From positions 533,873 to 597,872 of the forward strand of contig NMRA01000145.1 in assembly GCA_002633005.1 (NCBI GenBank): a DNA stretch of 64,000 bases, read 5' to 3'. The DNA is from Phoronis australis. Lineage: Eukaryota; Animalia; Phoronida. This document shows, piece after piece, positions 19,616-57,996 of this stretch (position 1 is its first letter; each line of letters begins with the position of its first letter). The notes beneath the pieces were generated by a model. It worked only from the letters and a program-made list of their open reading frames with translations. It had not been told where the DNA came from and ran no database searches. Position numbers and translations under genes: made by a program.

Positions 19616-22600
19616 TTACTCTGCGCATGCAAGCGCAGAGTACTGCTGTTCCTTGGTTTTCTTCAATTTTATTCTTCTTATCTTATTCTTACTCTTATGT
19701 TTCTTATTCTTATTCTTCTTATTCTTCTTCCGACCAACTTTGAGGCTTAATAACTCCAAATTGAGTGCAGGTAAGGTCTTTAAATTCAGCATATGACTTT
19801 TGACAGTAAATAGATTTTGATTGGTTATATAATCATATTCCATATTGCACCGGAAGAGGTCGTTTGGTGCAAAGGTCATATAATTTTCAAAATGCTGCTC
19901 CTCCACCAGTTTTAAAGCTATCTTTTTCAAATTCGGTGCACAGGTATATGTCAACATGACAATTTAAAACTTACTTTTTTAAGTAATTGGGTCATCCAAT
20001 CAGGTGAAATAGGTCAAAGGTCATTAGGTGCAACCAAAAGTTTTGAGCTAGACACTTCAAATTCACAGGTCTGATAGCCACAGGTAAATCAAATCGGAAT
20101 CCAAAGTTTCAGGTCATTTAGTGCAAACATGGGGTCATTAGGTGCACTTTTCTTCTGAAAATTTCACCTTTTGAATCAGCAAGTATTCTGATGTGTCAAC
20201 CGTTAGACAACTGTGATTCTCAGCGTTAAATACATTTTCCATGGGCTTTGCAATAGTTCTCCTAAAGATGCTTAAAATGCACCGGATAAGGTCAATTAGT
20301 GCAAAGGTCATGTAACGTTAAAAATGTTATATCTCTTACGTTTTTCAAGGAATTCTTTTCAATTTCAGCACACTGGTGTAAGTCAACATGCCAATTAAAT
20401 ACCCTACATTACTTCGAAATAGGTTTAACCAATCAGAAAAATAGGTCAAAGGTCATCGAGTGCAAACTAAAATTTTGAGCTAGAGACTTCAGAATTACGT
20501 ATCTGTTTACTAAGTGCGATTGAGTTTGAATTCTAAATTTTCAGGTCATTTGGTGCACCCGTGGGGTCATTAGGTACATTTTTCTTCTGAAAGTTTGACT
20601 AATTCATTCATCTTGTATTCTGAAGTGCTTGAAGTAAAACATCTGTGATTTTTAGCATTAATCACACTTTTAATCGAGTTAACAATTACTCCTTTATAGG
20701 GGCTCATAATGCACCGGAAGAGGTAAATTAGTGGAAAGGTAATCAAAAAATTAATATGTAATTTCTCCTACACTTTTAAAGGGTTCCTTTTAATATTGGT
20801 AAAGGGTTGCTGTCAGTAACTTCCCATAACAATTCTAATAATACGCACGCGCAGAGTCGTTATTGTCACGCCGTGAAAATAATCTTTCTAGTTCTTCTTA
20901 TTCTTATTCTTATTCTTCTTCCGAACAACTTTGACGCTTAATAACTCCAAAATGGTTGCAGGTATGTTCTTCAAATTTAACATATGATGTTAGGCATTAT
21001 ATAAATTTTGATTCATTATACATTCATTTTCCATAATGCACCGAAAGAGCTCATTTGGTGCAAAGATCATGTAATTTTCACAATACTACTCCTTCTTTAT
21101 TTCAAAAGCTATTCTTTTCAAATTCGGTACACTGGTAAAAGCCAATAAGGCAATTTAAAACATTACTTTTCTAAGTAATCGGGTCATCCAATCAGGTGAA
21201 ATAGGTCAAAGGTCATCAGTTAAATACTAAAAGTTTGAGCTAGACACTTCAAATTCACAAGTCTGATTGCCACATGTAAATCAAATCGGAATCCAAGTTT
21301 GAGGTCATTTAGTGCAAATATGGGGTCATTAGGTGCATTTTTCTTCTGAAAATGTGACCTTTTCATTCTCCATGTACACTGATGTGTCAACCGTTAGACA
21401 ATTGTCATTTTCAGCATTAAACACATTTTTCATGGGCTTTGCAATAATTCTCCTAAAGACGCTTATAATGCACCGGATACGGTCAATTAGTGCAAAGGTC
21501 ATCTAACGTTCAAAATGTATATCTCTTACGTTTTTCAAGGAATTCTTTTCAATTTCAGCACACTAGTGTATGTCAACATGCCAATTGCATAACCTACTTA
21601 ACTACGCAATAGCCTGACCAATCAGAAAAAAGAGGCCAAAGGTAATTGAGTGCAAAATTAAAATTTTGAGCAAGAGACTTCAAAATTACATATCTTTTAC
21701 TAAATGCGATTGAGTTTGAATTCTAACTTTTTGGGCCATTTGATGCACCCATGGGGTCATTAGGTGCATTGTTCTTCTGAAACTTTGACCAATTCATTCA
21801 TGTTGTATTCTTAAGTGCTTTAAGCAAAACATCTGTGATTCTTAGCGTTAACCACAATATAAATTGGTTTTTACAATTATTCCGACATCGGGTTTTATAA
21901 TGCACCGGAAGAGGTCAGTTAGTGGAAAGGTCATCAAAACATTTACATGTAATTACTCCTACAATTTTAAAGAATTTCTTTTCATATTGGTAAACGGGTT
22001 GCTGTCAGTAACTTCCCATAACAATTCCTTTAATACGCACACGCAGAGTCCATTATTGTCACGCCGTGACAATAATCTTTCTAGTTCTTCTTATTCTTAT
22101 TCTTATTCTTCATCAGACCAACTTTGAGGCTTAATAACTCCAAATTGGGTGCAGGTACGGTCCTTAAATTCAGCATATGACTTTTGACAGTATACAAATT
22201 TTGATTCGTTAAAAAATCATATTCCATATTGCACCGGGAGAGGTCGTTTGGTGCAAAGGTCATATAATTTTCAAAATGCTACTCCTCCTTCAGTTTTAAA
22301 GCTATCTTTTTCAAATTCGGTGCACAGGTATAAGTCAACATGACAATTTTAAAAAATACTTTTCTAAGTAATTGGGTCATCCAATCAGGTGAAATAGGTC
22401 AAAGGTCATTAGGTGCAAACTAAAATTTTGAGCTAGATACTTCAAATTCACAGGTCTGATTGGCACAGGTAATTCAATTCGGAATCCAAAGTTTCAGGTC
22501 ATTTAGTGCAAACATGGGGTCATGTTGTATTGTTAAGTGCTTAAAGTAAAACATCTGTGATTCTTAGCATTAACCACACTTTAAATTGGTTTTACAATTA

Positions 22601-22807
22601 TTCCCTCGTCGGGGTTCATAATGCACCGGAAGAGGTCAGTTAGTGGAAAGGTCATCAAAATATTATCATGTAACTTCTCCTACAATTTTAAAGAATTCCT
22701 TTTCATATTGGTAAACGGGTTGCTGTCAGTAACTTCCCCTAACAATTCCTTTAATACGCACGCTCAGAGTCCATTATTGTCACGCCATGACAATAATCTT
22801 TCAAGTT
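19616..22807 (+). mobile_element. Head-to-tail array of three Helentron-associated (HINE/DINE-1-like) rolling-circle elements
   Basis: 5' hairpin ACTCTGCGC-atgcaa-GCGCAGAGT, then (TTCTTA)n microsatellite and core, 3' subTIR-like GCAGAGT, stem-loop ATTATTGTCACG-C-CGTGACAATAAT and CTTTCTAGTT. Units end at about 20891, 22084 and 22807; the third has an internal deletion. Confidence 0.75.
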
Positions 22808-23000
22808 CTAATGTATTATTACTAAACGTGTCTGTTCAGTTTCAGTTTCGCTCAAAACATGATCTCTCTGCCAGTTGATAAATTTAAGTATGATCTCGTA
22901 CGAAATCAACTGAACCATTTCATTGAGTGGTCTTTAAATACAAAGCCGGTCACGGTTTTTGCAGACCAACGATAACACGGTGATACTGACTTACAAATTT

Positions 23001-26658: not shown

Positions 26659-27721
26659 AAGAGAACGCCACCCGATTTAATTAATCTTTTTTACCGTCTT
26701 AATCGGTCTATATCCACATTGCCTCTTATACAGTCGACCTCACCTTGCCGAAAGGTGTCGCGTTAACCTGTGAGGAAGGTGAGAAACGACGTAGCGACGT
26801 CAATGGTTCGTCTGCAGAGTGAATGCCGCTATATTGCAGTGCATCGTTCCCGCTTGTCCGAAATATGAAGCTGCGAAAAAAGCGGGTATATCGTTTTTTT
26901 GACTTCCTCGAGAGCCCGAAGTGCTTAGGAAGTGGCTCGCGGTAGTGAAGAATGAAAGGTACGTTGTTAATAGCAAGTATGAGGCCGTGAAACATCTCCG
27001 TGTCTGTGGCCGGCATTTCGTGGACAGTGATTTCTCTGACGAATTCCGTACGTCTTACCAAAGAATTATCCATTCGTTCCGTTGCCTGTGCAGGTTCACG
27101 ACGCCTCTCTAATATTCCTTGATCAGTGTATTGCGGTTTTGGAACTGATAGCCTGTGGAACCTAACGATCCGACCCGTGAAGTCTTCGTCGGATGAGCTT
27201 GACTAAGTCGGGATTGGCGCAGGGCGAGTTGCCATGTAGACGTTTATTATTCTGCGTTCTGTTTCAAAATGAATTATTCTCATCCTAACCAATGCTTATA
27301 TGAAACTGAAACGAAGTCTGTCTCATTAGATACAATTTGTAACGCCTTTGCAGTATTCGTAAGTGTAAATTTTGAGAATCCAGCAATGAATAAACCACTG
27401 CGTTACCGGATACAGTTGCCAGCAACAAAGGTAACTGACCGGGCATCGAGGCCGTGTGAGCACATGCTAATTCAGTGTTTACTGACAGAAAGCTGTTGTG
27501 AAAAAAATACTCGATTTTATATGCTATGGTCACATGTTAGGGGTTAGAAATACAAATGCATTATTCAAATCACTGTTACTGTACATTGTATGACGGTCTG
27601 TGGTAGGGGAACCCGACTTCGCGGGTCCCGACAAGTTAGTAGATTTTCAGTTTCGTGGCTAATTCAAATAATTATGTGCACATTATCTCTTTGGCTCACT
27701 ATTTTTGGGTAGCATTCTCCT
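26659..27721. mobile_element. Kolobok-type deletion derivative (family B, copy 1) with THAP relic on + and second-ORF relic on -
   Basis: TTAA|AAGAGAACGCCACCC ... GGGTAGCATTCTCCT|TTAA. Plus strand reads CIVPAC...GISFFDF / LRKWLAVVK...LRVCGRHFVDSDF (THAP, frameshifted). Homologous to 39784-41317. Confidence 0.8.
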
Positions 27722-29399
27722 TTAAGGTGACTTTGGCGAAGAATTCCAACTCCACTTTTTAAGTTGCCGTTAACTTTTTCACCACGCGCGCAATAGCCAC
27801 AAGTATGTTAACAGAGTCACGTGAGTTAGGCAAAGGCTAGCTCGAGACTGTGCGAAGCGCGTGACGCTAGCGCGTGACACTTCCTTAATAGCAAGGAGTG
27901 TACTAGTACAGGAGAGTTCACTCCGCCACTTTACCATTCGCCGCAATGGTTACCGGTCGAAACACTAGCGCCCCAAGCGGTGAATAATCAACACTAGTTA
28001 GGAGCGCAGTCCGAACAATGTAGACACTGATAAACTCGTACTTTATTGACATTCAACGTGCAATAAAATTACTGTGTGATTGAAAATTGTTAGAATACAT
28101 AAACTAACATCCACTTACAATAGAATGAGAAAGAAAATGTGTACTTTAATCAATATTAAAGTGAATTTGTTTTTATTCTCTTGAAGCTAGGGGGTACCAG
28201 GCAAAAACCAAGTGGGCGCCAAATGGGTGTTGACCCCCTCCCAGGGGGAGGGGGTTACATGGGAGGAGTGCTAAACAGGTAAAAACCAATGGGTATGTAT
28301 GCCACATGGGTGTTGAGCCCCTCCCATCGTCACACATTTTGGTTGCTCCCCTGACCACTGACAAACATGTTGCTCCCAGCTCACTGCTGGTTTCATCTCC
28401 ACCCAATAATTTCGCATGTGTTCCCTGTTCAATGAACCAGGCTACTAGCAATGCAGACAATTGTTTTGTGCAGTGGGTGTTACACAAGTGAGAAGAAGAA
28501 AACAAGGCAATTCATCACTACCATAAAATCGTAATACAATTTTAGAACATTCCATTATTTCTTAGAGATGCCAGTATAGGGCTCAATCCCACTCTCCCAC
28601 TCACCAACAGTTACAAGTCACTTGATAATCTGCAGAATAGCTCACATTTTACAAAATGAAGTAACATTGAGTATATCATCACTCCTAACTAGTCAAAATT
28701 CAAATGTCATGACAAAAAATTAAGAGGTATTGAACAGCAATCAAAATATTCATTACCCACATAGCTTCAAACAAAACTGAACTAAAAAGACTTGGATGAT
28801 AAAACCAAAATTTTATTTTATATACCCACTGTTTCTATTATCAATAACAGTGAGTAAATATTTCAGGTAAGTTAAAGCCAGATCACAAAGTTATATCTGA
28901 TACCTAGCCACTGACAACTGGGGCTTAAATTAATCACAATCTCCAAAAACGTTTAAAGTAGGAAACACATACACCAACCAATACAACAAGAAAATCTGAC
29001 CAACCTTGTCACTCTCTATTAATTCACTCGTAAACAACAGCAGTTTTTGCCAAAGAAATGCGTTATAAATAAAGCTGAAAACTAATTTATTCACAGAGGC
29101 GTTTGTCATCGAGAAGCAAAATGATATGGATAGCTTGGGTTTAACAAAATTTCAGCCCACCATTCAGACTCTGAATGATCCATCAGTTTTTCACTTTGGC
29201 TCTCTCCAAATCACAGGCTAACCATTCATAAAATGTTTCAATCTGATCAACCTTAGTAAAATACGAAAACCAGATTTTGACTAATTGTCCTTTCTACACG
29301 TGATGTTCCAGTACTTGCCTTGTGAGACGATAATCAGAAATGCAAAAAAGCCTATTCCAGACCTGTAATATAATTTCCGGAGAACTTTTTGACCCTGAC

Positions 29400-30346
29400 A
29401 TCTTCATTTTTGGTGGATTGGGGACATCAAATATTATTCGGGCACTGCAGTCAACACCAGCTTGTTCTTCATTCATGAACATGGACTCCTCGAAGTGATG
29501 AGAGCATAAGTTGCAGTTCTTGGACAAATAGGCTGCATCTCTATTCATAAGGTCAGCTCCCAGCGCTTGCACCTGAACAGAAATCAGTGACTGGGAGACT
29601 CAGGAACAAACCTCATACTCACTAGGCTCACATAAGACTAGTAGCCTACACTAAAGTACTGACACTACACTACAGAATTCCTGTCGTACTGTGATTGTGA
29701 TAGAGACAAAAGCGTTTTGGTTTCAACTGAAAAAAACTCGAACTCAAACATCGACCCACAGATATTTTAACAGGGCCTCGCCCCCGCATCATTGACACAT
29801 AGAATTAAGTTTTCAATGACGCACTGCTTACTTAATTGGTCCAACTGGCACATTAAAATTATGTTGATTTTTTTCACCTTTTCACCGAGACCCACAGATT
29901 CTCTAACTTGACTCATGACAGATTTGTGGCCCCACAGTGGCTGTGATGGTGCCATCATGATGGCCATGTCACCAGTCATATTACCCATGGCCACTGGCAT
30001 GGGTATGTTTTCCTAAATTATCCTTGCGATCGTACGGGTGACATTTTGATTTGTAATTCATGGACTCCAAGTATCCAAAAAGCTGACGATCACATCGTAC
30101 GTTCATCATAGTCCTTCCGCCGGCAGCCTAGCCTACACTGCAAACCGAACAGTGGCAACGAGAATGCGATCGACTTGTCTAACAACCGTGAACAACGCAC
30201 AAAATGAAAGACAATGTATCATATTATTGAATAACAGATAACCCTTACCTTTCTGGATCCTTAGGAAACCTAAAAAATGACAAGTCTGGGGTTTTCGTGG
30301 ATGAATTCATGCAATTTATCGCACTGCAAAATGCGTCCTTCCCCAT
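29400..30346 (-). pseudogene. Spliced THAP-domain transposase 5' remnant (exon 1 30249-30346; exon 2 from 29572)
   Basis: Exon 1 MGKDAFCSAINCMNSSTKTPDLSFFRFPKDPE-R with AG|GTAAG donor. Acceptor TTCAG|G, then CKRW, a frameshift, ADL...NLCSHHFEESMF and ...AVP..IFDVPNPPK. Confidence 0.8.
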
Positions 30347-36143: not shown

Positions 36144-37555
36144 TTAACTATGACAAAATGGCGGATGGTGAGTTTAAAACACTATAGGCAATCCTAATCG
36201 TGTACTTAGACATTTTACTGTGACAAACTGGTATAACTATTTAAAGTAAGGTTTTGAAACAAGCTCACAAACATTTTATAAACCAGGTAAAGGAAAAAGT
36301 GCTCGTCAAGACTAAAACGCCATCTATAGGACACTAGAGACATTGGCCACAATGATCACACGTTTTCCCACCCCACTATGTGCAAGGTAGCGCATCACGG
36401 ATTCATATCCGTATACCAAAACAAAAGTTGCTAAAAGAAACATAGGTTTCACATGAATGGGCCATTGTCCTTGAATACAAATAAGCGTGAGTACCAAAAA
36501 CAACCAGTTACATCCAAAACGTTAGGAAATTTGCTTTTGAATACTATAATTCACTTAATTAACTAAACATTGTTTATGAGTATATTACGGACTCAATCAA
36601 AGAAACCTATGGCGTCTATAAATATCCCGTTAGAAAGGACTACTTTTGCTTCCAATATACACATGCGTTGACTTTATAAAAACAGCCCATCCTTGTTCGT
36701 TCCTCATAAATTAACGTATCATTACCGCAGTAATCTTCTCGTACAGTATCCACACTTTTTTGTGTTTTGAAAGAAAAATAGTCATAAAAATGCTTGCCAT
36801 GAGCTGGAACGTAAACTTAAAAGTACGAGATAAAACGACGGGCAACTTAAACAAAACATCTGGCCATAAAAACAGTGCACATTAAACAAGGGCTTTTCTG
36901 ATAATCAAATTCAATGTTTACAGCACAAACAAAAATTGGAAATCTTAATTTAAATGCGTCACCAGTGAGTACGATACAACAACAAAATCACATGGTTAAC
37001 CAGTGTCGTGCAACATCTTCGCGGAATGAAGGAATTTTCTCCCGAACCGTGCACAGTGGGGATACTTTGAAAGGATACTAAGCCAATCCTCGTTCTGTAA
37101 CCTGCTAATGCGCCACTTTGCGTCAATCTTCTACGTTAAAAGCATGAAACAATTAAAACATCCGTAGTCCATATGCCACATATTGGACATTATGGTCCTT
37201 CGTGGGTGGTGTTTTACCGCAGTGGTCGTCCAATTCGCTATTCGAAAGGAGTTTTCAAAAATTTCTCCAAACTTTTGAGGGTTGTCGATGGTTACAGAGC
37301 ATTGCTTTGTTTCAGAGAACTGGGTGGGAAACTCGTTTTCAGTATCTGTCGATAGGTCAAAACCGGGTTTGGTATCCTTTCAAGTTTAAAAGCAAACGAA
37401 ACGTCCGATTTATTGAATAAATAAACTGTTACGGACAAGAAATGTTATCATCCAACGTATCTTAGGTTCATTTTGTGTAAATTCTGACTTCTCCTGCACG
37501 TGTAATACATGCGCAAATGTCAAAAGCTAAAACTTTTAATCCATGTTCAACGCCC

Positions 37556-39331
37556 TTAAGTTTTTTGAGTATAGCTATCAAACTTTCTCTTGATCTCCTC
37601 AATATACTTTTCTGACCCGTCTATTTCCACTGCTTTGCGGACTTCCAAACCTGGCAGAATATCCGTGCATCCAGGTAATTTGACAGGTATTATTGTGTCA
37701 TCTCTTCCAGTTTTGCACCTGTTAAATCTAATAGCTGTAAGCGTATTGTTAGCCATAGAAGTAACTGGAAATAAGCGTTCGCCACAACAAACCACTATCA
37801 AGGTACACATTTTATCGATTTTGTCCCAACCGTTGACAGTATTATCACCACCTAATACATCTCGATCTAAGAAGAAGCAACGCAGTTGCAATTTTTCCTC
37901 TAGACCAGTTACTATTTCGGCAACTTGATGGACGTCTTCTTCATCATAAACGAATCCAAGATCACGCAGATTATCATCGCAGTGGCCCATAGATATCTGA
38001 ATGGCTCTGTTTCGCTTGCTTTCTGCTTGATCTTTTTGATTGTTTGCCTCAAGTATTTCTGCCCACAACTTAAAAAGTTTGACGTCCATGTTACCTCCAT
38101 GTTCCAGTGACTGGTCACACTTTGCAATGGCATCGAGTATATTGCCTTTGAGGAAACAGGTTTTGGCAGAAAAACGATAGAAGTGACCGAGGTCACACCC
38201 CTTTTTCTTAGCCTCTTCAAAACATTTCATTGCGTCATCAAGGAATCGACTTGATTCCGAATTTTCTTGAGATTGTTCTTCGTACATCTTAAGATTCCAT
38301 CGTCCTAGCAAGGAGTAAGCATACCCGTTAGCTCCCTTATCCGACTCTATGGCTGCCTTAAGATATCTCTCAGCCTCTTCCATGTGCCCTGTGTTCATGA
38401 AAACTTGGCCACTTCTTCTAAGAATAGTCGACTTATTCGATTCTGTCGCTTTGGCATTTGCCTGTTTTATGCAATCGCGGACCGTAAACTCGGAGTGGTC
38501 CTTATCACATTCTCCCTTAAAGAAGATACTGAAGTTTTGGTATTCTTTAAATCGATCGTACTTGCTCAGAAGAACTGCCATGTAACACCATGCTTTTGAA
38601 ACAACGTCGTCCATTCTTGTACTGTGTTTCTTCTCGTCCGTCACTTCCGGAACATGTGAACGTTGAGCTACTTTATAGAAATATTTCATGGATTCAATGA
38701 AGTGTTCTGGTGACTTATCACCGAGATTGCCGTCTACGTTGAACAGAAAGAAAGCGTAACCAAATTCCCACTCTGTTTTATCAACCTGAGGAATATCCTC
38801 ACAATCCATTGCCTGAAGGTAGAGAGTTTCAGTGGCAAGAATACCGCCGGGTTGTAAGTGCGCATCTGTTGCTGACATAATCGTAGCAAGTTCGTATCGT
38901 GAGTAGGCCTTAAATTTTTCCACTGATGAATCAGAAAGAATTTTCTCTATGTCGTCATAGCACTTCGTAGCTTCATTAGTAAACTGAATGTGTTCATACA
39001 AGAATGCCATGTTCAGCAAGGCGTTGATATTACGCGGCTCTTCTTTGAGTACTTTTTCAAACCACTCAGTGGCTTTATCATACTCTTTAATTTTGAAGCT
39101 GAGGTACCCCAGTAAGATCATTAGGGGGTGTCGTCTTGCATCTGGCTCAACATCTATTTCTTTTGAAAAACGTTTATGGCAATTCTCAAATGAACTCTTC
39201 ATGTTTTGTAGATAGCGACTTGTGAAAAGACTGATAATGCCATATTTCCACAGCTTTTTTTCAGTTTCAGACATCAATAATCGGTACTCAGCCCTGTCAA
39301 AATATAAAGATGAGACCAAATCAACTTGTTT
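37556..39331 (-). CDS. TPR-repeat (IFIT/TTC22-like) protein with C-terminal TIR domain, in one long open exon
   Basis: 587-aa ORF with several TPR-pattern helical pairs (LLGYLSFKIKEYDKATEWFEKVLKEEPRNINALLNMAFLY; SGQVFMNTGHMEEAERYLKAAI; AYSLLG; AKTCFLKGNILDAIAKCDQSL). The last ~135 aa follow the TIR pattern DLGFVYDEED...LEEKLQLRCFFLDRDVLGG...LIVVC...IIPVKL. A candidate acceptor TTCCTTTTATAG precedes 39331, so an upstream exon may exist; otherwise the start is the ATG of MSETEKK. Confidence 0.85.
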   Translation of the reverse strand, partial: KQVDLVSSLYFDRAEYRLLMSETEKKLWKYGIISLFTSRYLQNMKSSFENCHKRFSKEIDVEPDARRHPLMILLGYLSFKIKEYDKATEWFEKVLKEEPRNINALLNMAFLYEHIQFTNEATKCYDDIEKILSDSSVEKFKAYSRYELATIMSATDAHLQPGGILATETLYLQAMDCEDIPQVDKTEWEFGYAFFLFNVDGNLGDKSPEHFIESMKYFYKVAQRSHVPEVTDEKKHSTRMDDVVSKAWCYMAVLLSKYDRFKEYQNFSIFFKGECDKDHSEFTVRDCIKQANAKATESNKSTILRRSGQVFMNTGHMEEAERYLKAAIESDKGANGYAYSLLGRWNLKMYEEQSQENSESSRFLDDAMKCFEEAKKKGCDLGHFYRFSAKTCFLKGNILDAIAKCDQSLEHGGNMDVKLFKLWAEILEANNQKDQAESKRNRAIQISMGHCDDNLRDLGFVYDEEDVHQVAEIVTGLEEKLQLRCFFLDRDVLGGDNTVNGWDKIDKMCTLIVVCCGERLFPVTSMANNTLTAIRFNRCKTGRDDTIIPVKLPGCTDILPGLEVRKAVEIDGSEKYIEEIKRKFDSYTQKT

Positions 39332-39783
39332 CTATAAAAGGAACACAACCTGTGCTTTGCCGACTTCACTCAAACCTTTGCTTGTCCCTTGTTACTGGGC
39401 AATTATCACTGCCCCTTTGAGGTATAAATTATGACTGAGGTAAACATTTCCCCATTACATAAAATAGGATTAAAGATTCTTTCATGTCTACAAAGAATAA
39501 CTTTTAGAGGAAGATGCTAATTTCCACCTATTTCTTCTCTTAAACACCACCTTAGATTCCCAAACAAAAATACGTAAACTTTCTATCACGGAATAGCAAG
39601 GGAAATTTCAAAGTTTTGCTTTTGCTCGCGCAGGCAAACCGAGCATGTTAGGTGATTCGGATTCAAATGGGATGACAGGAAGACAGTAAGGTAACACAAC
39701 AGTTGGTCACGTGATATTTGCGAGATCAAGATTTTGTAAAGCTAGCATCAAAACGTTTCCTAAATTAATCTTTAAACCATTAA

Positions 39784-41317
39784 ATGAGAATGCCACCCGA
39801 TTTAATAATGTTTTTTAACGTCTTTAAGACGTTAAAAAACATTATTAAATCGGTCTATATCCATATGGCCTCTTATACGGTCTATCTATGAAGCTGCGAA
39901 GAAAGCGGGTATATCGTTTTTTCGACTTCCTCGAGGGCCCGAAAGGCTTAGGAAGTGGCTCCCAGTAGGGAAGAATGAAAGTTACGCTGTTAATAGCAAG
40001 TATGAGGCCGTGAAACGTCTCCGTGTCTGTCGACAGTGATTTATATGACGAATTCTGGCTTACCAAAGAACTATCCATACGTTCCGTTGCCTGCGCATGT
40101 TCACGGCGCCTCTCTAGTATTTCTTGGTCAGTGTATTCCGGTTCGAACTGATAGTTTTCGAAACCTAATGATCCGACCCGTGAAGTCACCGTTGGATGAG
40201 CTCTTGACTAAGTCGGGATTGGCGCAGGGCGAGTTGCCATGCAGACGTTTATTATTCTGCGCTCTGCTTCAAAATAAATTGTTCTCATCCTAACCAATGC
40301 TTATATAAAACTGAAACAAAGTCTGTCTCATTAGATAAAATTTGTAATGCCTTTGCAGTATTCAGGAGTGCAAATGTTGAGAAGCCATCAATGAATAAAC
40401 CATTGCATTACCGGCTTTTGATGCCGGCAATAAAGTAATTGACCAGGCTGCCGAGGCCGTTTGAGCGCATGCTAATTCAGTGTTTGCTGACAGCAAGCTG
40501 TTGTGAAACAAATTACTCGATTTTACATGCTATGGTCACATGTTGGGGGAATGTTTATTTAGAAATACAAAAACATTATTCAAATCATTGTTCTGTACAA
40601 CTTTTGCCCTGACGATCTGTGGAAGGGGAACCCGATTTTGCGGCCCCCTACAAGCAAGTAGATTTTCAGTTTCGTGGCTAATTCACATAAATAATTACGC
40701 GCGCATTATTTCTTTGACTCACTGGTATAGTCTTTTCGTGACTGGAGGTTTAGTTTTCAACTCAAGCTGGTTTATGTTCCTGTCAGTCCCGGCGACGAGC
40801 CTGATCGGATTCCGAGCCACTGGCCGGGATAACAAACGTTTTGTGTGTTCAGAACTAAAAATCCAAACAACACGTGTCTAGGTTCACCTGTCTGTTTTTC
40901 ACGGAAGAATACTTCGAATTTATCTCCGAACAGACCCCAAACTCCTGCTACGGACCTTGGTAAATTGGCCTGCCGAACTTTGTAGGCTACAGTGTGTCCA
41001 AATACCAATAAATCCGTAACAGAGAAATAAAACAGCACGTTTTTATAAGAACTCGGTGTGTTTTTAAGGGTTTTAGATCGAAGTTTGATGATTTATTGGT
41101 GTTAAACTATGAATTCAAGCGATACGCTGACACCAGTAACCAATGTTGTGAACTGCTGAACAGACTGCGTGTGAAACCAAAGACATCACTGGATAATTTC
41201 AACACCTCCGTCTGCTGTCAGGTGTCAGGTAACGCAACCGAACGTGCCGTTATGGCCGAGTAGAACTACTCGATCGAAATTGATACAAAATATGTTGTTT
41301 TTGGGTGGCATTCTCTT
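39784..41317. mobile_element. Kolobok-type derivative (family B, copy 2)
   Basis: TTAA|ATGAGAATGCCACCC ... GGGTGGCATTCTCTT|TTAA. Colinear with 26659-27721 plus about 570 extra bp (about 40725-41295). Minus-strand relic GFENYQFEPEYTDQEILERRR. Confidence 0.8.
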
Positions 41318-44300
41318 TTAACAAAAATAGATTACGAACAGCAGGCAATAACTTACATGTGTCCAGTGATAATGTGTCCCCAATGTTGAACTTGTGACTG
41401 GAATACTGACCTTTACTTCGCACAGTCAAATAATAGTAAGTTTTTATTCGAACGCGAACCCGCTGCTGAAGAAAGATAAGATTTCTTATCTGCTGTTGTC
41501 GGGGACACGTATCACAATGGTTTGATTTTGATATCCCGTCCGTTAAGGTAGGTATTGATTCCTTAACAAAGGGATATAGATTAGTATTTTGTGTACACAC
41601 CGATTTCAATTCGCAAGCAGAACAATGTGTTTGCTTTCTCGGAAAAAGTGTTGGACGTCTACTGTATGGTTACTGCAGACAGTTCTTGCGCCAGATGTAC
41701 AGTCGCTCTCTCACTGTTTATTTTCGTCCAGCCTTTTTTCGAATGTCATTCCACAAACGTTTATAGGGGGGAAACGTCTATTGTACATACACGTAGTTAT
41801 GGCAACGGGATTTGGTTGGACTTGGGGCGATATCGGCGTAAGCACTGTGTTTCTTGATGTAAAGTAGTTTATTTGCATTCGTAAGTTTTCCCCTATTCTG
41901 TCAGTGTATTTTGAACGCTTGCTATTGTATGCCCTTTGCCCGTCGCCAGTTTTTGGGAGTTGTCCGGAGGAATTGGCTTAATTGTTATCTACATGGTATT
42001 GCATTATATGTAACGTGTGAATTTGAACATATTTTCTTTTTGTTACATATCAGTTTAGCTACTACTGTCACTTATACTACTGACAACAAAAGAGTAAAGC
42101 CCCCCCGAGCCTGTTTTGGTTTACTCCAACATCTATTACTCATTAACTTTTGAACCTTCCTTCGGCAGTCTAAGAAACTAACATTTACATCTGTCTCATC
42201 TAGTTCCTTACGCAGACATGCTGGGAAGGAGTGGGAGTCATCTGCAGTACTTGAGAGCATGCTGGGCACGGCCCGCCGCGGCAAGTCAGGCCCCTGGCTT
42301 TTAAAATTGCCGTGCCAGTTTTTAAGTGCCGACCACGAAGTTTTCTCAGCTGAAAAGAAGGCATTTGTAACAAGCTTAGGTGCGTGCACGGTCTTGCTGA
42401 TGGACCCCGTTAATAAAAATAAATTTAAAGATTAGCCATTAAACTTTCTTTATTCCGAAAACATTAGATTTTAAAATATTTGAATTAAAACCATTTTTTC
42501 TCTAAACAGGTATTGCTCAACCCGTCTCTAAATTCACGTCATGTTTTCTAAAGTCTTGATTTTCCTGTTGGCCACCTCGTGCTGAAATGCGCAGTGGCAG
42601 GATGAGGTAAACCCCTTTTGATGCACATCGACAACTCTCCGACGCATACGATGGCGTAGTGCTAATATGACATCTTTGTCTCAAAGTAGCGATTTCTACC
42701 GACATTCGCATTAAAGTNGGTCTTCAAGGGCAAACTTGAACTAGAAACTCCTATGCATAAACTATAATGTATTCGAGCACAGTCTGATAACCAATTATCT
42801 TAAGTTCGCACAAAAGGAGCAGAGAAATTGCCAAAAATAGTTTCGAGTTCCTTTCGAGTACAAAGATTAGAGACCGGGCCCAGGTCACTGGATCATTTCA
42901 ACACCTCCGTCTGCTGTCAGGTGTCAGGTAACGCAACCGAACGTGCCGTTATGGAGTAGAACTACTCGATCGAAATTGATACAAAATATGTTGTTTTTGG
43001 GTGGCATTCTCTTTTAACGAAAATAAACTACGAACAGCAGGCAATAACTTACATGTGTCCAGTGATAATGTGTCTCCAATGTTGAACTTGTGACTGGAAT
43101 ACTGACCTTTACTTCCCACAGTCAAATAATAGTAAGTTTTTATTCGAACGCGAACCCGCTGCTGAAGAAAGATGAGATTTCTTATCTGCTGTTGTCGGGG
43201 ACACGTATCACAATGGTTTGATTTTGATATCTGACGTCCGTTAAGGTAGGTATTGATTCCTTAACAAAAGGGTATAGATTAGTAATTTGTGTACACACCG
43301 ATTTCAATTCGCAAGCAGAACAACGTGTTTGCTTTTTCGGAAATGTTTGACGTCTGTGGTTACTGCAGACAGTTCTTGCGCCAGATGTACAGTCGCTCTC
43401 TCACTGTTTATTTTCGTCCAGCCTTTTTTCGAATGTCATTCCACAAACGTTTATAGTGGGGAAACGTCTATTGTACATACACGTAGTTATGGCAACGGGA
43501 TTTGGTTGGACTTGGGGCGATATCGGCGTAAGCAATGTGTTTCTTGATGCCAGGTAGTTTATTTGCATTCGTTAGTTTTCCCCTGTTCTGTCAGTGTATT
43601 TTGAACGCTTGCTATTGTATGCCCTTTGCCCGTCGTCAGTTTTTTGGGAGTTGTCCGGAGGAATTGGCTTGTTATCTACATGGTATTGCATTATATGTAA
43701 CGTGTGAATTTGAACATAGCCTTCTTTTTGTTACATATCAGTTTAGCTACTACTGTCACTTATACTACTGACAACAAAAGAGTAAAGCCCCCCCGAGCCT
43801 GTTTTGGTTTACTCCAACATCTATTACTCATTAACTTTTGAACCTTTCTTCGGCAGTCTAAGAAACTAACATTTACATTTGTCTCATCTAGTTCCTTATG
43901 CAGACATGCTGGGGAAGGAGTGGGAGTCATCAGCAGTACTTGAGAGCATGCTGGGCACGGCCCACCGCGGCAAGTCAGGCCCCTGGCTCCTTTAAAATTG
44001 CCGTGCCAGTTTTTAAGCGCCGACCACGAAGTTTTCTCAGCTGAAAAGAAGGCATTTGTAACAAGCTTGGGTGCGTGCACGGTCTTGCTGATGGACCCCG
44101 TTAATACAAATAAATTTAAAGATTAGCCATTAAACTTTCTTTATTCCGAAAACATTAGATTTTAAAATATTTGAATAAAAACCATTTTTTCTCTAAACAG
44201 GTATTGCTCAACCCGTCTCTAAATTCACGTCATGTTTTCTAAAGTCTTGATTTTCCTGTTGGCCACCTCGTACTGAAATGCGCAGTGGCAGGATGAGGTA

Positions 44301-44408
44301 AACCCCTTTTGATGCACATCGACAACTCTCCGACGCATACGATGGCGTAGTGCTAATATGACATCTTTGTCTCAAAGTAGCGATTTCTACCGACATTCGC
44401 ATTAAAGT
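41186..44408. repeat. Near-identical tandem duplication (41186-42717 vs 42885-44408) of the CLCA 3' flank, split by N at 42718
   Basis: Colinear ~1.5-kb copies with small SNPs and indels. The first copy stops exactly at the N. Confidence 0.9.
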
Positions 44409-44437: not shown

Positions 44438-47400
44438 TCATGTGGGTCTTTTAACTTCCGTGTCCACTAGATTAACGGGTGTCATACCAAAGGAGGAGCT
44501 TTTCCTTACACTCCGTTTCCAATTGGTCATTTCCGCCCAGGTGTCGGTCGGCTGAGGGACTTGACTCACTTTTCGATTCCCGTGTACCTTGGCCCGTGCA
44601 CAGTACAACAGGGTGAAAGAAACTGTGAGAGTTAACGCGACTACGGAGCATCCAGCTATTGTAGCACCCAAGACTACAGGGTTTGCAAAAGGCGACCTGC
44701 TGTCTTCTTTATCTATTGTTGGATGTGGTGTTAATATGGATTTTGTTTGAGATTTCGCTGATACTTTAGATGATGATGTTTTCTCGAGGTTGCTATTTGG
44801 TTCTTTTACTCCGTTGGAACTTTCTGAAGGTCGAAATATACCGGAAGTAGGTGTAGCAGATTGTGACAAAACGGGTATGGGGCTGCTTTTAGGACGCAAG
44901 TTCGAAGGTTTTATGCCTCGCTTTGCCAGTATCTCCTCATAGACAAGAGGGTCAACCATTTCCACTACTATTACATCTGGAACGTAACCGAGACCAGCCG
45001 TAGCGATGTTGGAAAATTTCCCTGCGTGACCTACTTCGTCGAGGGCGCAAACAGCGAACACGAAGCTGGCGTTCTCAGTTGGATTCACGTCTACCTTGAC
45101 AGTGAAGCGTTCCCGTTCTCCTGCCGCTCGTGGTGACGTCAAATTCCCAACTGTGAGCATGGCTTGAGTCACTGGAACAGCTGTTTCCGGGCTGGTAGCG
45201 AGATCATCGTAGATTTCAGCCATCCGGATATCGTACTGGAACGCTAAAAGGACGGAAGTCATGATATTCATAGAAAATTCTAATGCAATTGTAGGCTCAT
45301 TATACCCATTTTCCAATTACGCAATATTTTTCCTATCCCAATACTACCAAATTTCCCAAAATGCTGAAAAGGCATTTTAAAGGAAATAAGATAACTGAAA
45401 TTTTGAAGTTTCAAATGTCTTATAATGCACAACGTTTTAACAGTACTCCAAAACACTTCCTATTAATTTTCTTAATTTGACAGTTACTAAGAATTTGCAA
45501 ATTTTTAATCTCTGGATAAATTGTTTTAAGGTAAAACTTACAAAAAACTAAAACTCTTCTTACTTAGTTTTCTTAATTTCCAAGTTATCAGTCACTAACA
45601 ATTAGAAAAATTGTATCAGTAAATCATTGTAAGTTTAGACTTTTGCGACTTCCACGTTAGTAACTTTACCTTTTCCCACATCTTCGTCGTCACCAGTCGC
45701 CAACCATGACAAAGAAACCGTCCCATTTTCGTGTGATGTCATGCTGACAATAAGGTCGTTTATTTCTCCTGGAGGCACTACGTCTTTTCCCGCCAAAAGG
45801 TCAGAAAATGGCTGAAAAGGAGCGACAGTGCCGTTCCTCTTGAATTCGAAAGCTCCCGCTGTTGTTGTTCTAGACACATTTGACGTCACGGCTGTTGATT
45901 TTGTTTCAGTATCTGGAGGAATATCTGGAAAAGTGTAGTTATAACTAGATCAGTAAATGATACGAAGAAAATATAATTTAACAGTGACGTTAATTTCACT
46001 GCTCTGTAACTAGTCCATTCTAAGCGAGACCATCAGCCATAGCCCCTTTAATCAATTTTCTCGTAAGACGTCGATTTGCAAGTAAATGACGTTTAATCCA
46101 CTGATTTGAAATATGACATGTGATATTTATGCATGCCCTACATTTCAAAGGATCTTCCGGGGAAACTCTGAAAGAGGCCTTCTGTCCCACTTCTTCTGTT
46201 TCTTGCACTACAGCTTTCCCGTTTTGGTTGGACACTTTGACCGAAACACTGTATCGGCCATTGGCCGTGAAAGCAGTGAAATATCGAGAGTAAACCCCGT
46301 CATTCTTTGTCACATCAGCTCCTGAAATGAAATGAAAAATTACCAGCAAAGCATGTTCTCAAAAAACTAACGAAGTCCACCATGTAGAAGGTCTCTTTTT
46401 CATTCCCTGGGTTAATATTAAGCACCATAAGTGGATGTGATTCATTTTAACGGGTGTCTATCACGACGGCATGTGAATGTTATCTTTGAAAATTAAATCA
46501 GATAAGCACAAATGTGCCATTTTTGTTATATTTCAAAACGTTTAAAGCGGCACTTTCGGTTTCACGACCGAAAAACAAAACTCATCTTTGGGAGTATTGT
46601 TGGATGAGATAGAAGTCTTGAAGTTATTACCGTTCACCAGATCTGTAAACAACAAAATCAGTTGCATTTTTGTAACTTTATTTCAAATCGCCAATTCATG
46701 CCATTGTCTGCCAGATGTTTGCTGAAATCGTACCGGTGTGTACGCTTAAAACACTCCCTTACATACAACTCGGGATTTGGCGAATACTGCGAAGCAAAAG
46801 GGTTCCAAACAGCGTTGCGTCTCACTTTTTGCAAAAACATTTTTCTCGATCGAAGAATTATGAATCTTAAATAAATATGTAAATAAATTGTTAATCAACA
46901 GTTTTCTTTGGGATTTTGGGAATTCTAGACTTGGCAGAAGAGCGAGAGAAAATCGCCATCTTGTTGCATAACCTCGCCTAACCTTAAAAGCCTCAGTTAA
47001 GTATTGAAGTTGCGTGATTTATTTTTTATTTGGTTATTCTTTAAAAAACAAAACAGATCGGAGCCAATAAACATACGGTGAAAACAAACAAATCAGCCCC
47101 CGTCTGAGGGCAGCTGTTCTTAGTAAATGTAGAAGCGCTCCATGACATCGCACGTGGCCAACCAAGAGAGCTTGTGTTGCGGAAATCCCCGAAAATAAAA
47201 ACTCTCGTTACATGCGCATACCCAGGGGGGGGGGGGGAGGACGCGCCTCCCATATTAAAGGCTGGGTGCGCGCATGCGTGTGGCTTTGCGAAGTCTTCTT
47301 TTTCTCTCAAGGAACTTTGTCTACGGAATGGTACCCTGACTGAGCGTCATTACCGATGCACTGGTGCTTACCTAAACCGTTGTCCAGCAGTTCCAGTTGA

Positions 47401-50400
47401 TATGGGGTAGCCATCAGACGTTCTACTGTTGCGACAACTGTCATACCACTCACAGGGAAGGGTCCCTTTGTCACCTCGGCATAAATGCCGACCCGCTCAT
47501 TGGTTTTAATAGCGGACATTTCCGTTTTTACTGTTATTGGCTGATCGTTTAGACTACGCGGCTTGGATGAAACACTGAATGATAAACGTTGACTTGCCTG
47601 TGCTGTATTTTTTATATATAGGCTCCACGTACCTGTCTGCAGAAATCAATAAGATTAATTGCAAGACTAGAAGTTGCTGAAACAATTGAAAACTCTGATG
47701 CTACCGAAACTACATCTAGAAATTAGCTGGAAACAAGAATTGTGGGCCTACGTGAGCGAATTGGAATAAAATTAGTACAACATAAGTGTAAGTAGCATTT
47801 GGTGGTGGGGAGTGATAGTCTGCTCAATTTTCAATTTTACTTGATTTTTCACCGCTTTGGATTTCCTCAAAATTTCAGCACACTACATTTATAGTGGCCC
47901 CAACGTTCGTCAGTGCTGAGTTTCAAAGGACTTATCCAATTCAAAAAAGATTACTTTTAAAATGCCCATACTTCTAGACACTCGGGCCGTACCACATATC
48001 CCATGCTTCTAGTGATGGACAGCATGACAGAAACAATAGAAAAGTTATGAAAGGGCCAGCGAATAACTGCAAGCGGCTGTTAATTGGGTGTTTGGAAACA
48101 ATTACAGCAGTAATAAGTCCTATTTTGCTAACTTTGATAGTTGGATTTCACTTCTTCTCGCCACAAAACTAAGAGGTAGATTTATATCCCCTGTAAAAAA
48201 TTTTCGGACATAAGTTAACTTTGTTTGGACACTATCATAAATTGCTCACCTCAGCGATAGCGAAGCGGAACCTGATGAGTTTCAGACTAGTTCTGTCGTA
48301 ATGGGCAGACGACTCGTCATAGCGGACACCAGATGGCGATGTCACGGATGCATTTAAAGGAATGTCATTGGTATAGGATATGACGAAGAGAGTATCCTTC
48401 CCAAGAGTATCGTCAATGGCAACTTGCGACGTTACGGTGTCATATGCGCTCATCATTTTGGCCTCGCTCACAAGCTGTTGGTGAATCATAATCATAATCA
48501 CTCTTACACTTTCTGATTACCGAGTAGGCCCACCCGATTTAGTAATTGGGGGGCGTTACTAAAACGATGTTAGGAGTCGTTTGATAAACACTGCTCGAGC
48601 GTCAGCATGCCCATAACAGCGTTAACATTGTGACGCGTGGTGGCATTGTTCTTAAGAAACGAGTCCCTGAACGCTATTAGACCGCATATTTTGATGGAAT
48701 TGGTCTCAAATTGTTCCTTAGTCAAGGTATGTTTGATTTCTAGGCTTAGATAGAACTATCACTCTTTTCTGACCCCAAAAAAGCATGTCTAAACTTCCAG
48801 AGAAGAAGACAACGCCTATTTTGTAACGGTAAGTGTCCTAAATCAAAACTTCTTTTTTGGACCGAAGACATGGGTTTAATGCAGATTTGAATGTCTGTAA
48901 AAAGTCTCATTCGCCAAGTGACACTAGAGTTCTATTTGTACCTGAATTGGTCGGTTGCTTTCGTCTTTATCAACGGCAGACAAGTCAAAGAACGCATCGT
49001 TCAAAGCAGTAGTGGTCGGGTCATTACTGTCGTAATAGAATTTTCCCCCTGTAATTATGATATGTTATTATTCAAACTATTTAGAGTTTAAGATTTCAAA
49101 CAGTCGGCAATTTTCCAAAAGAAATTATGGAATTATTTCGTGCCTGAGTATTACTTGACCAAACCAGTGTTTTGAAACGACACCCTGAAACCTTTTTGTG
49201 ATCAACTTACATCAATCTATGTAGCTAACCTAACACGCTGAAAAGCAGTTCAAATATACGATCGTTCGTAAGTGGGGGTTTGAACGGTAAAATCAACAAA
49301 AGTTGCAAGTAAAAAGCTGCAGTGCATAAAAACTAAGGTCCCGAACAGCTAGACAAGATTAGATTTCGGCAACGGAATCATGATGAACGAACCTGTCTTT
49401 AAAGATACAGCAGCCAAATTATTGTCTGCTACGAACGTATAGGCAAGGGTGTCAACGGTAATGCCGGCAAAAAACAGCTGCGGCATCACGTCCATGACCT
49501 TCGGTGAGTTGTTCTCAGTTCCATCGGTGATGAGAAGAATAAGAGAACCCTCGGTCTTTCCTCCGCCGGCTTTGAGCATCTGAATAAAACAATGGGTATA
49601 CTCTTTGCTCTGTGCATTTCTTAGACATTTTAGAGTCTATGCTATTGGTAGTAGCAATATTTGGAAATATGATTTGCAAGGGTCTTTGGCAGTAACGTTT
49701 TGGGTAAACCGGGAAAGGAAATAGAAACTTTTAAGTCTTAAAAGAATAAAGAGGTTCAGGGAGGGGAGGAAGGAGCGAGAGGTTGATTATTTTTTGTTTC
49801 TAATACCTACATTTAGTTACGTTACATATTAATCATAAACATAACAAATACTCTTGCCATACTTCGTGTGCCTTCATAAGACCTCCACCAATACTCGTTC
49901 CTCCGCCGGCTTTCTTCACTAAATCGTTGATGAGAATGTCTCGGTCGCCCTGATGTCGTATTTTTCTGATGGGACTAGCCATGCGCGCAGACGTGCTGAA
50001 CTCAACGATACCAAGTTCGCTATTATCATCTATGCCGTCTTTTATGTATTGCTCCGCCGCTTGGTTCATCCGAATTAGTTTGTCGTCCGCCTAAAATACG
50101 ATGCATCAAAGTTATACAACATACTGTAAAGATCTTCGTAAAATGTATCTTTCTACATGCCCTGGTGGTGTATTTTCCATCCAGTCTTTTTAGACGAAAT
50201 GCGACTTTTGTTGTACACGTCAGTGACAATAATATGGTGGCGATGATGACCTTGACATCGAAGATGGTGAAAAGAGTGATGTCAGCAAGGCATATCACGA
50301 TGATCGACAATGGTGAATATAGTAATCACGTAAAGATAAGTAACGATGGTGACGGTGATCATTGATATTGATGATGCTGATGATATTGATGACGTTGACC

Positions 50401-53400
50401 ATGACGATGACTATGGTGATTATAAAGACAATAATGACTTCCATGATTATTATGATGTTTGAAAATGATGATGATGATGATGGTGGTGGTGGTGTTGTTG
50501 ATGATGGTGGAAAAGAAGGTCGATGGTGATGATGTTGGTGATGATGATGATGATGATGATATGATTATGATGATGATGATGATTATGATGATGATGATGA
50601 CGACGACGACGACGACGACGATGATGATGATGACCATGATGCTGATGATGTGGTCAGAAATGACCGTAACCATGGCCACATTAACGACGATGATGGTGGT
50701 ACGGTCGATACTGATCATGAAGGGATTGGCGTAGTTGATAGTGATGGCGATGCAACGGACTTCTGTTGTTTATACATGAAAGACATTTACCGTCATACTT
50801 CCAGATGTGTCCATGACAAGAACGACTCGTCTGTCTCGCGTTCGCACTATCTTAAAGGTAGGCACCAATTGGTCGTCGGGAATTTCTCGGGGAAGATTGT
50901 TGAGGTTTCTGAAATCTTTTGAATTTCCGATGACTTCCCAAGTGCTTTTCCCTCTGCACAATCGGTTGTGTTTGTTGGGGGCTTCGCTGTTGTGATGAAT
51001 TTTAGGATCCGCCTTGTTGTGTTCACAAAAGTAGTCCACCTTGTTTGAGTTAAATTTAGAAATTGTCGTACAAAAACGAAACAAGTTCAATCAATGCGTT
51101 GTTACAGACATTTCTAATTTACACAACGATTGGAATTAGTATTTACTGCTGGGGTTATTCACCCTGAAGTTCCTATGCAGTTCAACTGACTAGGCTTTTA
51201 CATGACTGCGTATACAAAGGCAGAGATGGCCAGTCATGTAACCTTGGCTACGAACGGTAAACGCAAGAATCTTGCGAAAATGTAATATCATGCAAATTTT
51301 CGCTAGAGATCGCCATGCAATGTAACTGAGCACATGAGACTTTTCTTGCCAGTGCGTTTGGTGGGTGAGGCACAATCCTTCTTCAGACAATCGTAAAAGC
51401 GACAGAAACACCAGCTGGATCAATTGTGGAAATCTTGAATACTTAGCTCTGTCTGACCGAAGAATAACTCTCACCATAACTCTCATGAATGTCCACAAGC
51501 AGCCAGGATAGTTGTTGAATCAGGCTAGCGCACCTGCCACATGATTCAAAATGCAAAAGGACAATATATACTTACCCCAGGTACGTATTGCCTGTCCATG
51601 ATAGAACCCTTTAGACCCTTTTGCCATCGTGCCTTTTCGTGTGGATAAAAATGACAATTCTTGGGGTAGGTGCCAAGTATTGGATCAATTCGGCAGAATT
51701 TTATTTTTTTCCTGCCCTTGTCATCGTCTACGTATTCCCAAATCCTCCCTTTCATTGCTGCTGTGCATCGTGTCGGCTCGATCCTTCCCGTCGAAGGAGA
51801 AAAATAAAATTCTTGCTCGCCATCCGTCGGATACTCGTCAAAAACACCCCAACGGAAGTGGGCCCACTCATGCACGATAAGCTTTTCTGAAAAGTAAACA
51901 GAAACAATCCTTATTATTAATGACACAGCATCTATTTAAATGATTTAGCCTACGACATCACACGTAAAATTTTTGTCTTGAGTTATTTCGGGAACTTGGC
52001 AATTATGAATTGTAGTATAGAAAGCAATTTAAGTGCAAGCTGACACAACCCTAATAACTGCTTATTTGTTCAGAGTCAAATTTTCTCGGGACCCTCAGCT
52101 ACAAGAAGTCTGGGGACCCAATAATTTGACCAGTCTCTGATCAACTGCTTCGTCGCAGCCACGATTCCCCCAGGGCATAACCATAACTGTCACTCTCTGC
52201 TCACGTATTCACGATTTTGACCACGGTTAGGATGCAAAATTTCACTCCCTTCCCGCTAACTACAAAATATGTCGCTACTTTTACCGCGCATTTTGTAAGT
52301 CGGGCAAAAGGCGAGGGGATTCTAAACGTCGTTTCAATTACCGGTCAGCTTACGAATATAGCTTACAACCCTTGAAAGACTAGGTGTTACTAACTTAAAT
52401 CTCTAGCATTGCGTTCCATAGACCCAACACAATAGCCACGCACTTGCAAGAAATCTTCGCTTATGGAAAAGAAATAATGAATGCTATCCCACAATTCAAC
52501 ATTCCAACATCACCGACCAATCACTCCAGTGGCAGTCATTGTACTGGGTTACGCTGGTACAGCTAGTTACGGTCTCGAGCTTTCTCGCGAAACTTTCATT
52601 CGTGTCATTTTGCGTGGTCTTGCGTGATCTAGCTTTTCTGGCAAGAAACTTTTAAGTTTTAATTAAAATTGGTTTACGGAAACCTACCCTGATAGCAGTT
52701 TCTTTCTGTGGACGCCTGAGGACGTCATATTTCCGTGGACCTGCCCATCGTTTATGTCGCTCATGTCGTTGTCAAACATTGTAAGGAGATTCAAAAGTTG
52801 CTCCAAAGTCTTGATAATGGGAAACAATTTATAAAGATTGCACTTAATCGGTTTCCAAAACAGAACAGTTATAGTCTACCTGGAGGTCCATAGTAATCTT
52901 CCGACTTCGGATCTGTCAAATATTCCGGAGTCAGGTGCATATGAACGCCCGAGTCGCCGCAACCACTGTAAGTCTTCACGTAAGGATTGTTGCGGTGGCG
53001 CGGATTGGCAGATGCCACGATGACGTCAGCTTTGTCATATAACTCGCCCTTCACCTGAAATGATTTGCGAATGCGCGGAACCAAAGTATTCATAAATTAG
53101 AACTACACGAATTTGAGCTGCAAACTATTATTTTTCTTGATAAAAGCAGTTACTGGTTTATTACATTCGTAAGTGTTACGTGAATCCGCAATATACTGAT
53201 CCTGTCTATACGGGTATTGTTGTCTATTTTTTTACACAAAAGCACAGTGTATTTTTTAAGAAAAACTGCAAAAACCTCTTCACAAACCGGCGTTCATTTA
53301 TAGTAATAGTCTGTCGTGTAATCACCGAGAGAAACGAATACGCGGCTATTGCAATACTTCGCTAATCGATTCTTTCCGTTGTTGTTCGATAGACCTGCAA

Positions 53401-57958: not shown

Positions 57959-57996
57959 NGTTTTTACGCCTAGACGAAAATAGGCTTGAATAGTAC

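Follow-up and report, generated by a model that had tools for sequence, protein, structure and literature searches.

A divergent TTC22-like TPR-TIR gene of Phoronis australis with a predicted IFIT-like fold and a probably non-enzymatic TIR domain

Cytosolic invertebrate proteins in which a TIR domain is combined with TPR or other domains are already on record. Oyster 'TIR-TPR' proteins are named in the Fig. 1 legend of one paper (PMC4346834) and in the abbreviation list of another (PMC9334734), and the ecTIR-DC families are cytosolic TIR proteins for which an adaptor role has been hypothesised (PMC6321704, in part and second-hand). The BcTir/Tpr system of bacteria also has TIR and TPR in one system, as far as the accessible part of that report goes (bioRxiv 10.1101/2023.05.26.542521); it comprises two genes and cleaves NAD, whereas the locus described here is one gene whose animal-type TIR lacks the catalytic glutamate. 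IFITs are described as a jawed-vertebrate invention tied to interferon and are said to be confined to that group, acorn-worm and lancelet matches having been dismissed by a neighbour-joining tree (accessible part of PMC3688568). Knockout mice for Ttc22 showed no phenotype, in a report whose accessible part leaves infection unmentioned (PMC13693868). In the literature outside subscription journals we found nothing that pairs TTC22 with a TIR domain or uses the term 'TPR-TIR'; the accessible parts of PMC6723221 and PMC8195603 hold nothing on the TTC22-like-TIR family, and those of PMC13197388, PMC13693868 and PMC3688568 make no link by term between TTC22 and IFIT. The gene reported here had originally been put forward as the best candidate in the window for an undescribed system. 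For the domain pair 'undescribed' goes too far, TIR and TPR being already listed together for oyster in the figure legend cited above, and the TTC22-like-TIR family may already be covered by the ecTIR-DC description; that the family is poorly studied holds.

The gene lies in a 64-kb stretch of Phoronis australis DNA, the whole of which was analysed and is referred to as the window. It is contained in an open reading frame at 37556-39331 on the minus strand, with 591 codons between stops, and residues are numbered from the first codon of this stop-to-stop frame. About 9e-13 frames of such length are expected by chance in the window, which rules out a chance frame. The likely splice acceptor ending at 39294 (15 of 20 positions pyrimidines, phase 2) precedes a single large coding exon, so that the first 12 or so codons of the frame are probably intron. 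In alignment A2, Met 20 lies level with the start Met in each of the six relatives, a correspondence that terminal alignment favours; the protein is likely 572 aa long and would be slightly longer if an upstream exon is coding. The exon has no transmembrane segment (the highest 19-residue Kyte-Doolittle mean is 1.4, inside the TIR), no Walker A motif and no LRR pattern. The 25 Pfam families listed include none of the NACHT, NB-ARC or LRR type, and for this exon a fragment of an NLR or TLR is rejected. The original prediction of one open exon encoding TPR helices followed by a C-terminal TIR, without transmembrane segment, LRR or NACHT/NB-ARC, is thereby confirmed as an observation by the intact frame, the Pfam TPR matches, and the model and profile of the TIR. 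Feature coordinates are collected in Table 1.

Table 1 Features of the TPR-TIR gene (window coordinates; residue numbers follow the stop-to-stop frame)
Feature	Position	Strand	Remarks
Likely splice acceptor (pyrimidine tract + AG)	39294..39315	-	from sequence; top-ranked among 15 AG sites within 39200-39400
Coding sequence, first ATG to stop, 572 aa	37556..39274	-	likely start Met at 39274
TTC22-family TPR solenoid, predicted IFIT-like fold	37982..39274	-	aa 20-450; Pfam, profile, model
Asn198	38738..38740	-	7 of the 8 distinct relatives have Arg in this column
TIR domain, animal Box-2 type, degenerate	37562..37963	-	aa 457-590; profile, alignment, model
Box 2 / BB loop	37847..37864	-	aa 490-495; MyD88 consensus except Gly for conserved Pro
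Thr530, at catalytic Glu position of NAD-cutting TIRs	37742..37744	-	alignment A3; helix C in model
Putative polyadenylation signal (AATAAA)	37409..37414	-	about 140 bases past stop; sequence only

A single copy of the TPR-TIR gene occurs in the window, amid repeats; a CLCA gene in the same orientation lies 5 kb upstream of it. This multi-exon neighbour (44438-51935, minus strand) was recognised by a Pfam CLCA match of E 8e-23 on exon 51546-51935, and RNA reads give weak coverage of its last exon; as read from the DNA, that exon ends in its own stop, on which ground the TPR-TIR exon is rejected as an alternative exon of CLCA. Tandem duplications flank the CLCA exons at 41186-42717 / 42885-44408 (96%) and 56463-57542 / 57960-59063 (94%), and each copy of the second (56463-59063) bears a kB-like site beside an ISRE-like one (56998-57020 and 58506-58528). 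Near the TPR-TIR gene itself, ISRE-like matches fall at 39259, inside the coding sequence, and at 40664, inside a repeat. The motif GAAANNGAAA occurs 18 times in the whole window against 6.7 expected, and none of 100 shuffles reached 18; several of the matches sit in repeated copies and hence are not independent. A dispersed repeat has one copy just upstream of the gene (39797-40723, with a 57-base palindrome at 39797-39853) and another, 84% identical, at 26864-27700; the repeat is covered by many divergent RNA reads and is likely a mobile element. Elsewhere the window contains a 3.7-kb inverted repeat (9828-13524 / 14342-17922, arms 88% identical and about 0.8 kb apart), an array of diverged direct repeats with units of about 430-1200 bases (19701-22809), an intronless frame of 449 codons at 3280-4629 (minus strand) with a weak Sulfotransfer_3 match below the cut-off (E 0.011), and a short frame at 29294-29599 (minus strand) with a Cys-Ser-x-His-Phe motif, which we take to resemble a THAP domain.

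Transcription was assessed in three RNA runs bearing the same species label, each sampled to about 18-19% of its raw reads, and in one contig set, all from unspecified tissues. At 90% likeness the depth over the frame was zero in all four sets, and at 80% likeness a single bin of one run reached 0.45; the last exon of the neighbouring CLCA gene reached up to 4.7 in the same data. Reads this scarce fit an inducible or tissue-restricted gene, a gene absent from those individuals, or a silent copy. The last of these readings would make the locus a young pseudogene, a decaying copy or a presence/absence variant of the TTC22-like-TIR family, to which the essentially nil reads, the single large exon among repeats and the loss of several family-conserved residues could all point. 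We consider it improbable, given that 572 codons run without stop or frameshift although no relative is more than 18-24% identical, that the core residues of the family are retained from end to end, and that the acceptor and the polyadenylation signal are in place. Silence is moreover reported for IFIT-like genes of fish before induction (accessible part of PMC3688568).

Sequence kinship of the TPR part lies with TTC22. Five Pfam TPR models match above their own cut-offs, and the model of the full protein is helical over about aa 41-448, with a pLDDT of 63.8. A search of 1.84 billion representatives gave 614 matches, and the best 150 of the 614, which were inspected, comprised five full-length relatives and 145 generic TPR matches. 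The five are gar TTC22 (XP_006635058.1, here P0020; E 1.1e-10 over aa 57-350), two acorn-worm proteins named 'TTC22-like', a crinoid protein (P0095) and P0038. When P0103 served as the query, seven matches were obtained, namely P0103 itself, three further relatives (P0157-P0159) and P0160-P0162, which match through the TIR only. A profile of the five relatives, built without the Phoronis protein, gives 159.5 bits to aa 52-446 of the latter, and none of the other TPR proteins compared exceeds 36.4; the score is inflated by the fact that the Phoronis protein itself had chosen the seeds. All named relatives are annotated TTC22 or TTC22-like. Word-indexed protein searches with the Phoronis protein and with alignment A1 returned one generic TPR protein each, and a metagenome scan returned five loci from 64 candidates, all of them short TPR matches. 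By sequence, then, the protein is a divergent member of the TTC22 family.

Within this family, gar TTC22 and the TTC22-like proteins of Ptychodera flava (XP_070579288.1, P0103) and Glandiceps talaboti (XP_077991562.1, P0018) have a collinear TPR solenoid of about 400 aa at 20-29% identity, with core motifs common to the Phoronis protein. A C-terminal TIR is present in six of the eight distinct relatives, the two without it being gar TTC22 and one acorn-worm copy; P0103 resembles the Phoronis protein in that its TIR also lacks the catalytic glutamate. In P0103 and P0157-P0159 the TIR is preceded by additional helices and an extended linker; in the Phoronis protein it follows directly on the last TPR. 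The latter layout is that of the short TPR-TIR proteins P0095 (Anneissia japonica, XP_033097554.1) and P0038, of about 600 aa, although these are only 23-24% identical to the Phoronis protein and P0095 retains the catalytic glutamate that the Phoronis protein does not. A tree of ten rows without outgroup groups the Phoronis protein with P0095 and P0038 at 98/98 support, on a long terminal branch of 1.64 changes per column; a forced grouping with gar TTC22 was not rejected in this small, unrooted set with its long branch (p-AU 0.052). Echinoderm and mollusc clusters adjoin P0095 in the Atlas, with 54 members, 91% of which carry TIR_2. The original view of a poorly described invertebrate family is supported, in that the family is little studied and chiefly invertebrate, and genomes of relatives carry it in more than one copy. 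Anneissia (crinoid) and Glandiceps (acorn worm) each have two divergent family members, and most members are only 18-28% identical to one another. These divergent double copies and low identities fit a fast-changing immune family.

The original prediction had called the protein IFIT-like, and this holds for its predicted shape, while by sequence the protein goes with TTC22. After re-ranking of 958 of Foldseek's top 1000 chains with VIA, the 11 best rows are all IFIT5 or IFIT1, aligned from the N-terminus with model residues 23-450 on IFIT residues 11-413 (Z 18.0-21.2, rmsd 4.7-6.4, 348-369 aligned); the best IFIT5 match has Z 21.2 and rmsd 4.7 over 351 aligned residues, 27-450 on chain residues 14-407. 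Next come Tom70 (Z 17.4, rmsd 26.6), OGT (17.0, rmsd 12.5) and LGN (16.7, 255 aligned). Among the Foldseek matches listed, query-normalised TM is likewise greatest for IFITs (0.38-0.39), and IFIT5, IFIT1 and IFIT2 (PDB 4hot, 4hor, 5w5h, 5udi, 4g1t) are the best end-to-end structural match of the predicted TPR part, at 13-15% identity in the structural alignment and without a TIR of their own. By E-value, however, Foldseek placed IFITs at rank 19 or lower, and in the wide VIA search IFIT2 stood at rank 15 (Z 14.2, against 16.2 for OGT). All of these matches are to the predicted model, whose pLDDT is 63.8. No TTC22 structure is among the PDB matches, so that the nearest relative of solved structure may just happen to be an IFIT.

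Sequence comparisons with IFITs are likewise divided. In the Atlas, IFIT clusters (0.96) directly follow TTC22 clusters (0.98) around the relative P0018, and a four-sequence profile matches IFIT3 (E 3e-4) and IFIT1 (E 0.007) with their N-termini in register, though ranked below generic TPRs. Single-sequence phmmer searches with the Phoronis protein, P0038, P0020 and P0018 listed no IFIT, nor is any IFIT among 42 PDB matches at E<=1. The protein is thus, as far as sequence goes, closer to TTC22 than to IFIT; shared ancestry of TTC22 and IFIT is likely but unproven. A single large coding exon after a likely phase-2 acceptor is reminiscent of the layout of IFIT genes, which have two exons, the second carrying nearly the whole reading frame (accessible part of PMC13197388).

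These likenesses raise the possibility of a true IFIT-type sensor, in which the TPR pocket would bind viral 5'-triphosphate or cap-0 RNA and the TIR would relay the signal. IFIT5 has a basic RNA pocket formed by Q41, K150, R186 and R253, of which K150, R186 and R253 are needed for RNA binding (accessible parts of PMC9677429 and PMC3950709). With the N-terminal offset of 13, Asn198 falls near IFIT5 residues 185-186 and is possibly the site of R186, a mapping drawn from range offsets only. Should this mapping be right, the family may have retained an RNA contact now lost from the Phoronis copy, which has Asn where 7 of the 8 relatives have Arg. The TPR part is furthermore net acidic (charge -7, pI 6.0), though whole IFIT5, with 68 basic and 70 acidic residues in the accessible source, is itself near neutral and slightly acidic. 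Set against the structural ranks after re-alignment, the Atlas neighbourhood, the in-register profile matches and the exon layout, the lost Arg, the acidic charge, the low ranks by E-value and in the wide search, the position of the profile matches under generic TPRs and the modest model confidence make an RNA-end sensor of the IFIT type unlikely for this copy.

The fold of the C-terminal tail was approached by several routes. No Pfam family, TIR and TIR_2 included, matched the last 141 aa at E<=10, though Pfam detects the TIRs of relatives. A profile built from the TIRs of three relatives scored the tail at 15.7 bits, which none of 1000 shuffles reached (791 were scored, the best at 11.5). 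Strands and helices alternate along the tail of the full-protein model, at low confidence. A fold of the tail by itself, made from nine aligned rows, gave a pLDDT of 73.5 and a pTM of 0.69. Foldseek with the isolated tail model returned TIR/SEFIR-family rows only among the matches listed, MyD88 being best (TM 0.67), and VIA-align gave Z 14.4 for MyD88 (rmsd 3.4, 131 aligned) and Z 14.3 for TIRAP. Ranks 1-24 of the wide VIA search are TIR/SEFIR-type or receptor entries, whereas non-TIR folds such as GTPases and deoxyribosyltransferases reach Z 10.5 at most. The folding alignment contained known TIRs, and the tail model therefore leans towards this fold; the shuffle test and the place of the protein in a TIR-bearing family support the TIR independently of the model. 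The tail is accordingly predicted to be a TIR domain: the possibility that the C-terminal 135 or so residues would not adopt this fold was named beforehand as one that would refute the prediction, and the modelled fold is flavodoxin-like and matches MyD88 and TIRAP at Z of about 14.

A glutamate in helix C is the catalytic residue of the TIRs that act as NADases, such as SARM1 and those of plants and bacteria. In the Phoronis protein, alignment A3 places Thr530 at this site, where Hydra TRR-2 has a Thr too, and Val461 at the site of the Box 1 Ser. Alignment A3 includes the TIR-only proteins P0160 and P0162 and is biased towards TLR-type TIRs, and the assignment of type rests also on the family-only alignment A2, whose profile has Hydra TRR-2, TLR2, TLR6, TLR1 and MyD88 as its best natural PDB matches. 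Of the Box 2 consensus RDxxPG, the R, D and G are present with Gly in place of Pro, and the helix-A Glu is present; Box 2 and a Glu ending helix A mark the TIRs of TLRs, IL-1R, TIRAP and MyD88 and are typically absent in prokaryotes (accessible part of PMC7075850). The Phoronis TIR is likely, on these residues, of the TLR/MyD88 type and a scaffold rather than a NADase, as Thr530 at the catalytic position suggests. It has the fold and the Box-2 type of the TIRs of MyD88, TIRAP, TLRs and Hydra TRR-2, and differs from MyD88 and TLR proteins in having no death domain, LRR, transmembrane segment, BB-loop Pro or Box 3.

Structural comparison also brings in enzymes. SARM1 (Z 13.9) and oyster TIR-STING (Z 13.6) tie with MyD88 within 1 in the wide VIA search, so that the fold alone does not fix the type of TIR, and the SARM1 E642A variant appears among the Foldseek matches to the tail. 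The catalytic Glu is kept in two of six family TIRs (P0095 and P0158, the six including P0038, which ends early), both with the Box 1 Ser as well; these two are candidate TPR-gated NADases, and the TTC22-like-TIR family is probably, to judge by these residues, a mixture of enzyme-competent and scaffold members. That the Phoronis protein itself is an enzyme cleaving NAD upon ligand binding, in the manner of SARM1, TIR-STING or the TIR proteins of bacterial defence, is very improbable in view of Thr530, Val461 and the animal Box-2 type. A NADase of bacterial type is rejected on these features and on the lower Z of bacterial TIRs, at most 11.9 among the matches listed; the comparison with NADase and bacterial-defence TIRs is one of layout only.

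The TIR is degenerate: the Box 1 aromatic residue and Ser are lost, the BB-loop Pro is Gly and the Box 3 FW is absent. Loss of the BB-loop Pro blocks TLR signalling. Such degeneration may indicate a decoy or else a domain in decay, and a decoy or brake, whose TPR part would bind the ligand or partners of signalling paralogues while its TIR caps TIR assemblies, would agree with the exchange of a Pro kept in four of six family TIRs, the eroded Box 1, the failure of Pfam on this TIR alone and the long terminal branch. TIR-only forms of MyD88 in oyster have been proposed as competitors (accessible part of PMC4346834). Yet the same position is Gly in P0038 and Ala in P0157, which indicates that the change is tolerated in the family, and the Box 2 Arg and Gly and the helix-A Glu are retained, so that we regard a decoy as rather unlikely.

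The explanation that we favour, tentatively and at somewhat less than even confidence, is that the TTC22-family TPR solenoid, with its predicted IFIT-like fold, and the TLR/MyD88-type TIR without catalytic Glu together form a soluble one-piece immune receptor or adaptor. Beyond the architecture, its steps are drawn by analogy with TLR/MyD88 biology. A ligand would be held in the TPR clamp, and for this copy a bare RNA end is a less likely ligand than a protein or ribonucleoprotein; binding would cluster the TPR-TIR molecules; the clustered TIRs would seed TIR-TIR assemblies with MyD88-like adaptors; and these assemblies would switch on NF-kB/IRF-type transcription without cleavage of NAD. Counted against this receptor or adaptor are the near-zero RNA depth, the degenerate TIR, the closeness of SARM1 to MyD88 in Z, the lack of a phenotype in the Ttc22 knockout mice and the inflation of the family profile score by its seeds.

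Taken on sequence and model, the gene is real and belongs, as a divergent and probably non-enzymatic variant, to an uncharacterised family of TTC22-like-TIR proteins whose fold is predicted to be IFIT-like; its function is inferred. It supports, at the level of the family, the idea of an ancestry common to TTC22, the IFITs and invertebrate TPR-TIR proteins, and is not the best member to begin with, being divergent, probably non-enzymatic and without a transcript seen; P0095 or P0158, in which the catalytic Glu is kept, would be better first choices for testing. We regard it as conceivable, though on balance doubtful, that an old animal family of TPR-TIR receptors gave rise to TTC22 and to the IFITs as two vertebrate branches without a TIR. 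Genes such as this one would then represent the receptor form that survives, in which a clamp for RNA or ribonucleoprotein is joined directly to a TIR, some versions being competent as NADases and others scaffolds only. If such a family is real, the origin of the IFIT fold would move to before interferon and human TTC22 would gain a testable immune role; shared ancestry would make TTC22 worth testing under infection. If TTC22 and IFIT share fold and ancestry with the invertebrate TPR-TIR proteins, invertebrates may possess a pathway of cytosolic sensing that runs parallel to RIG-I-like receptors and NLRs.
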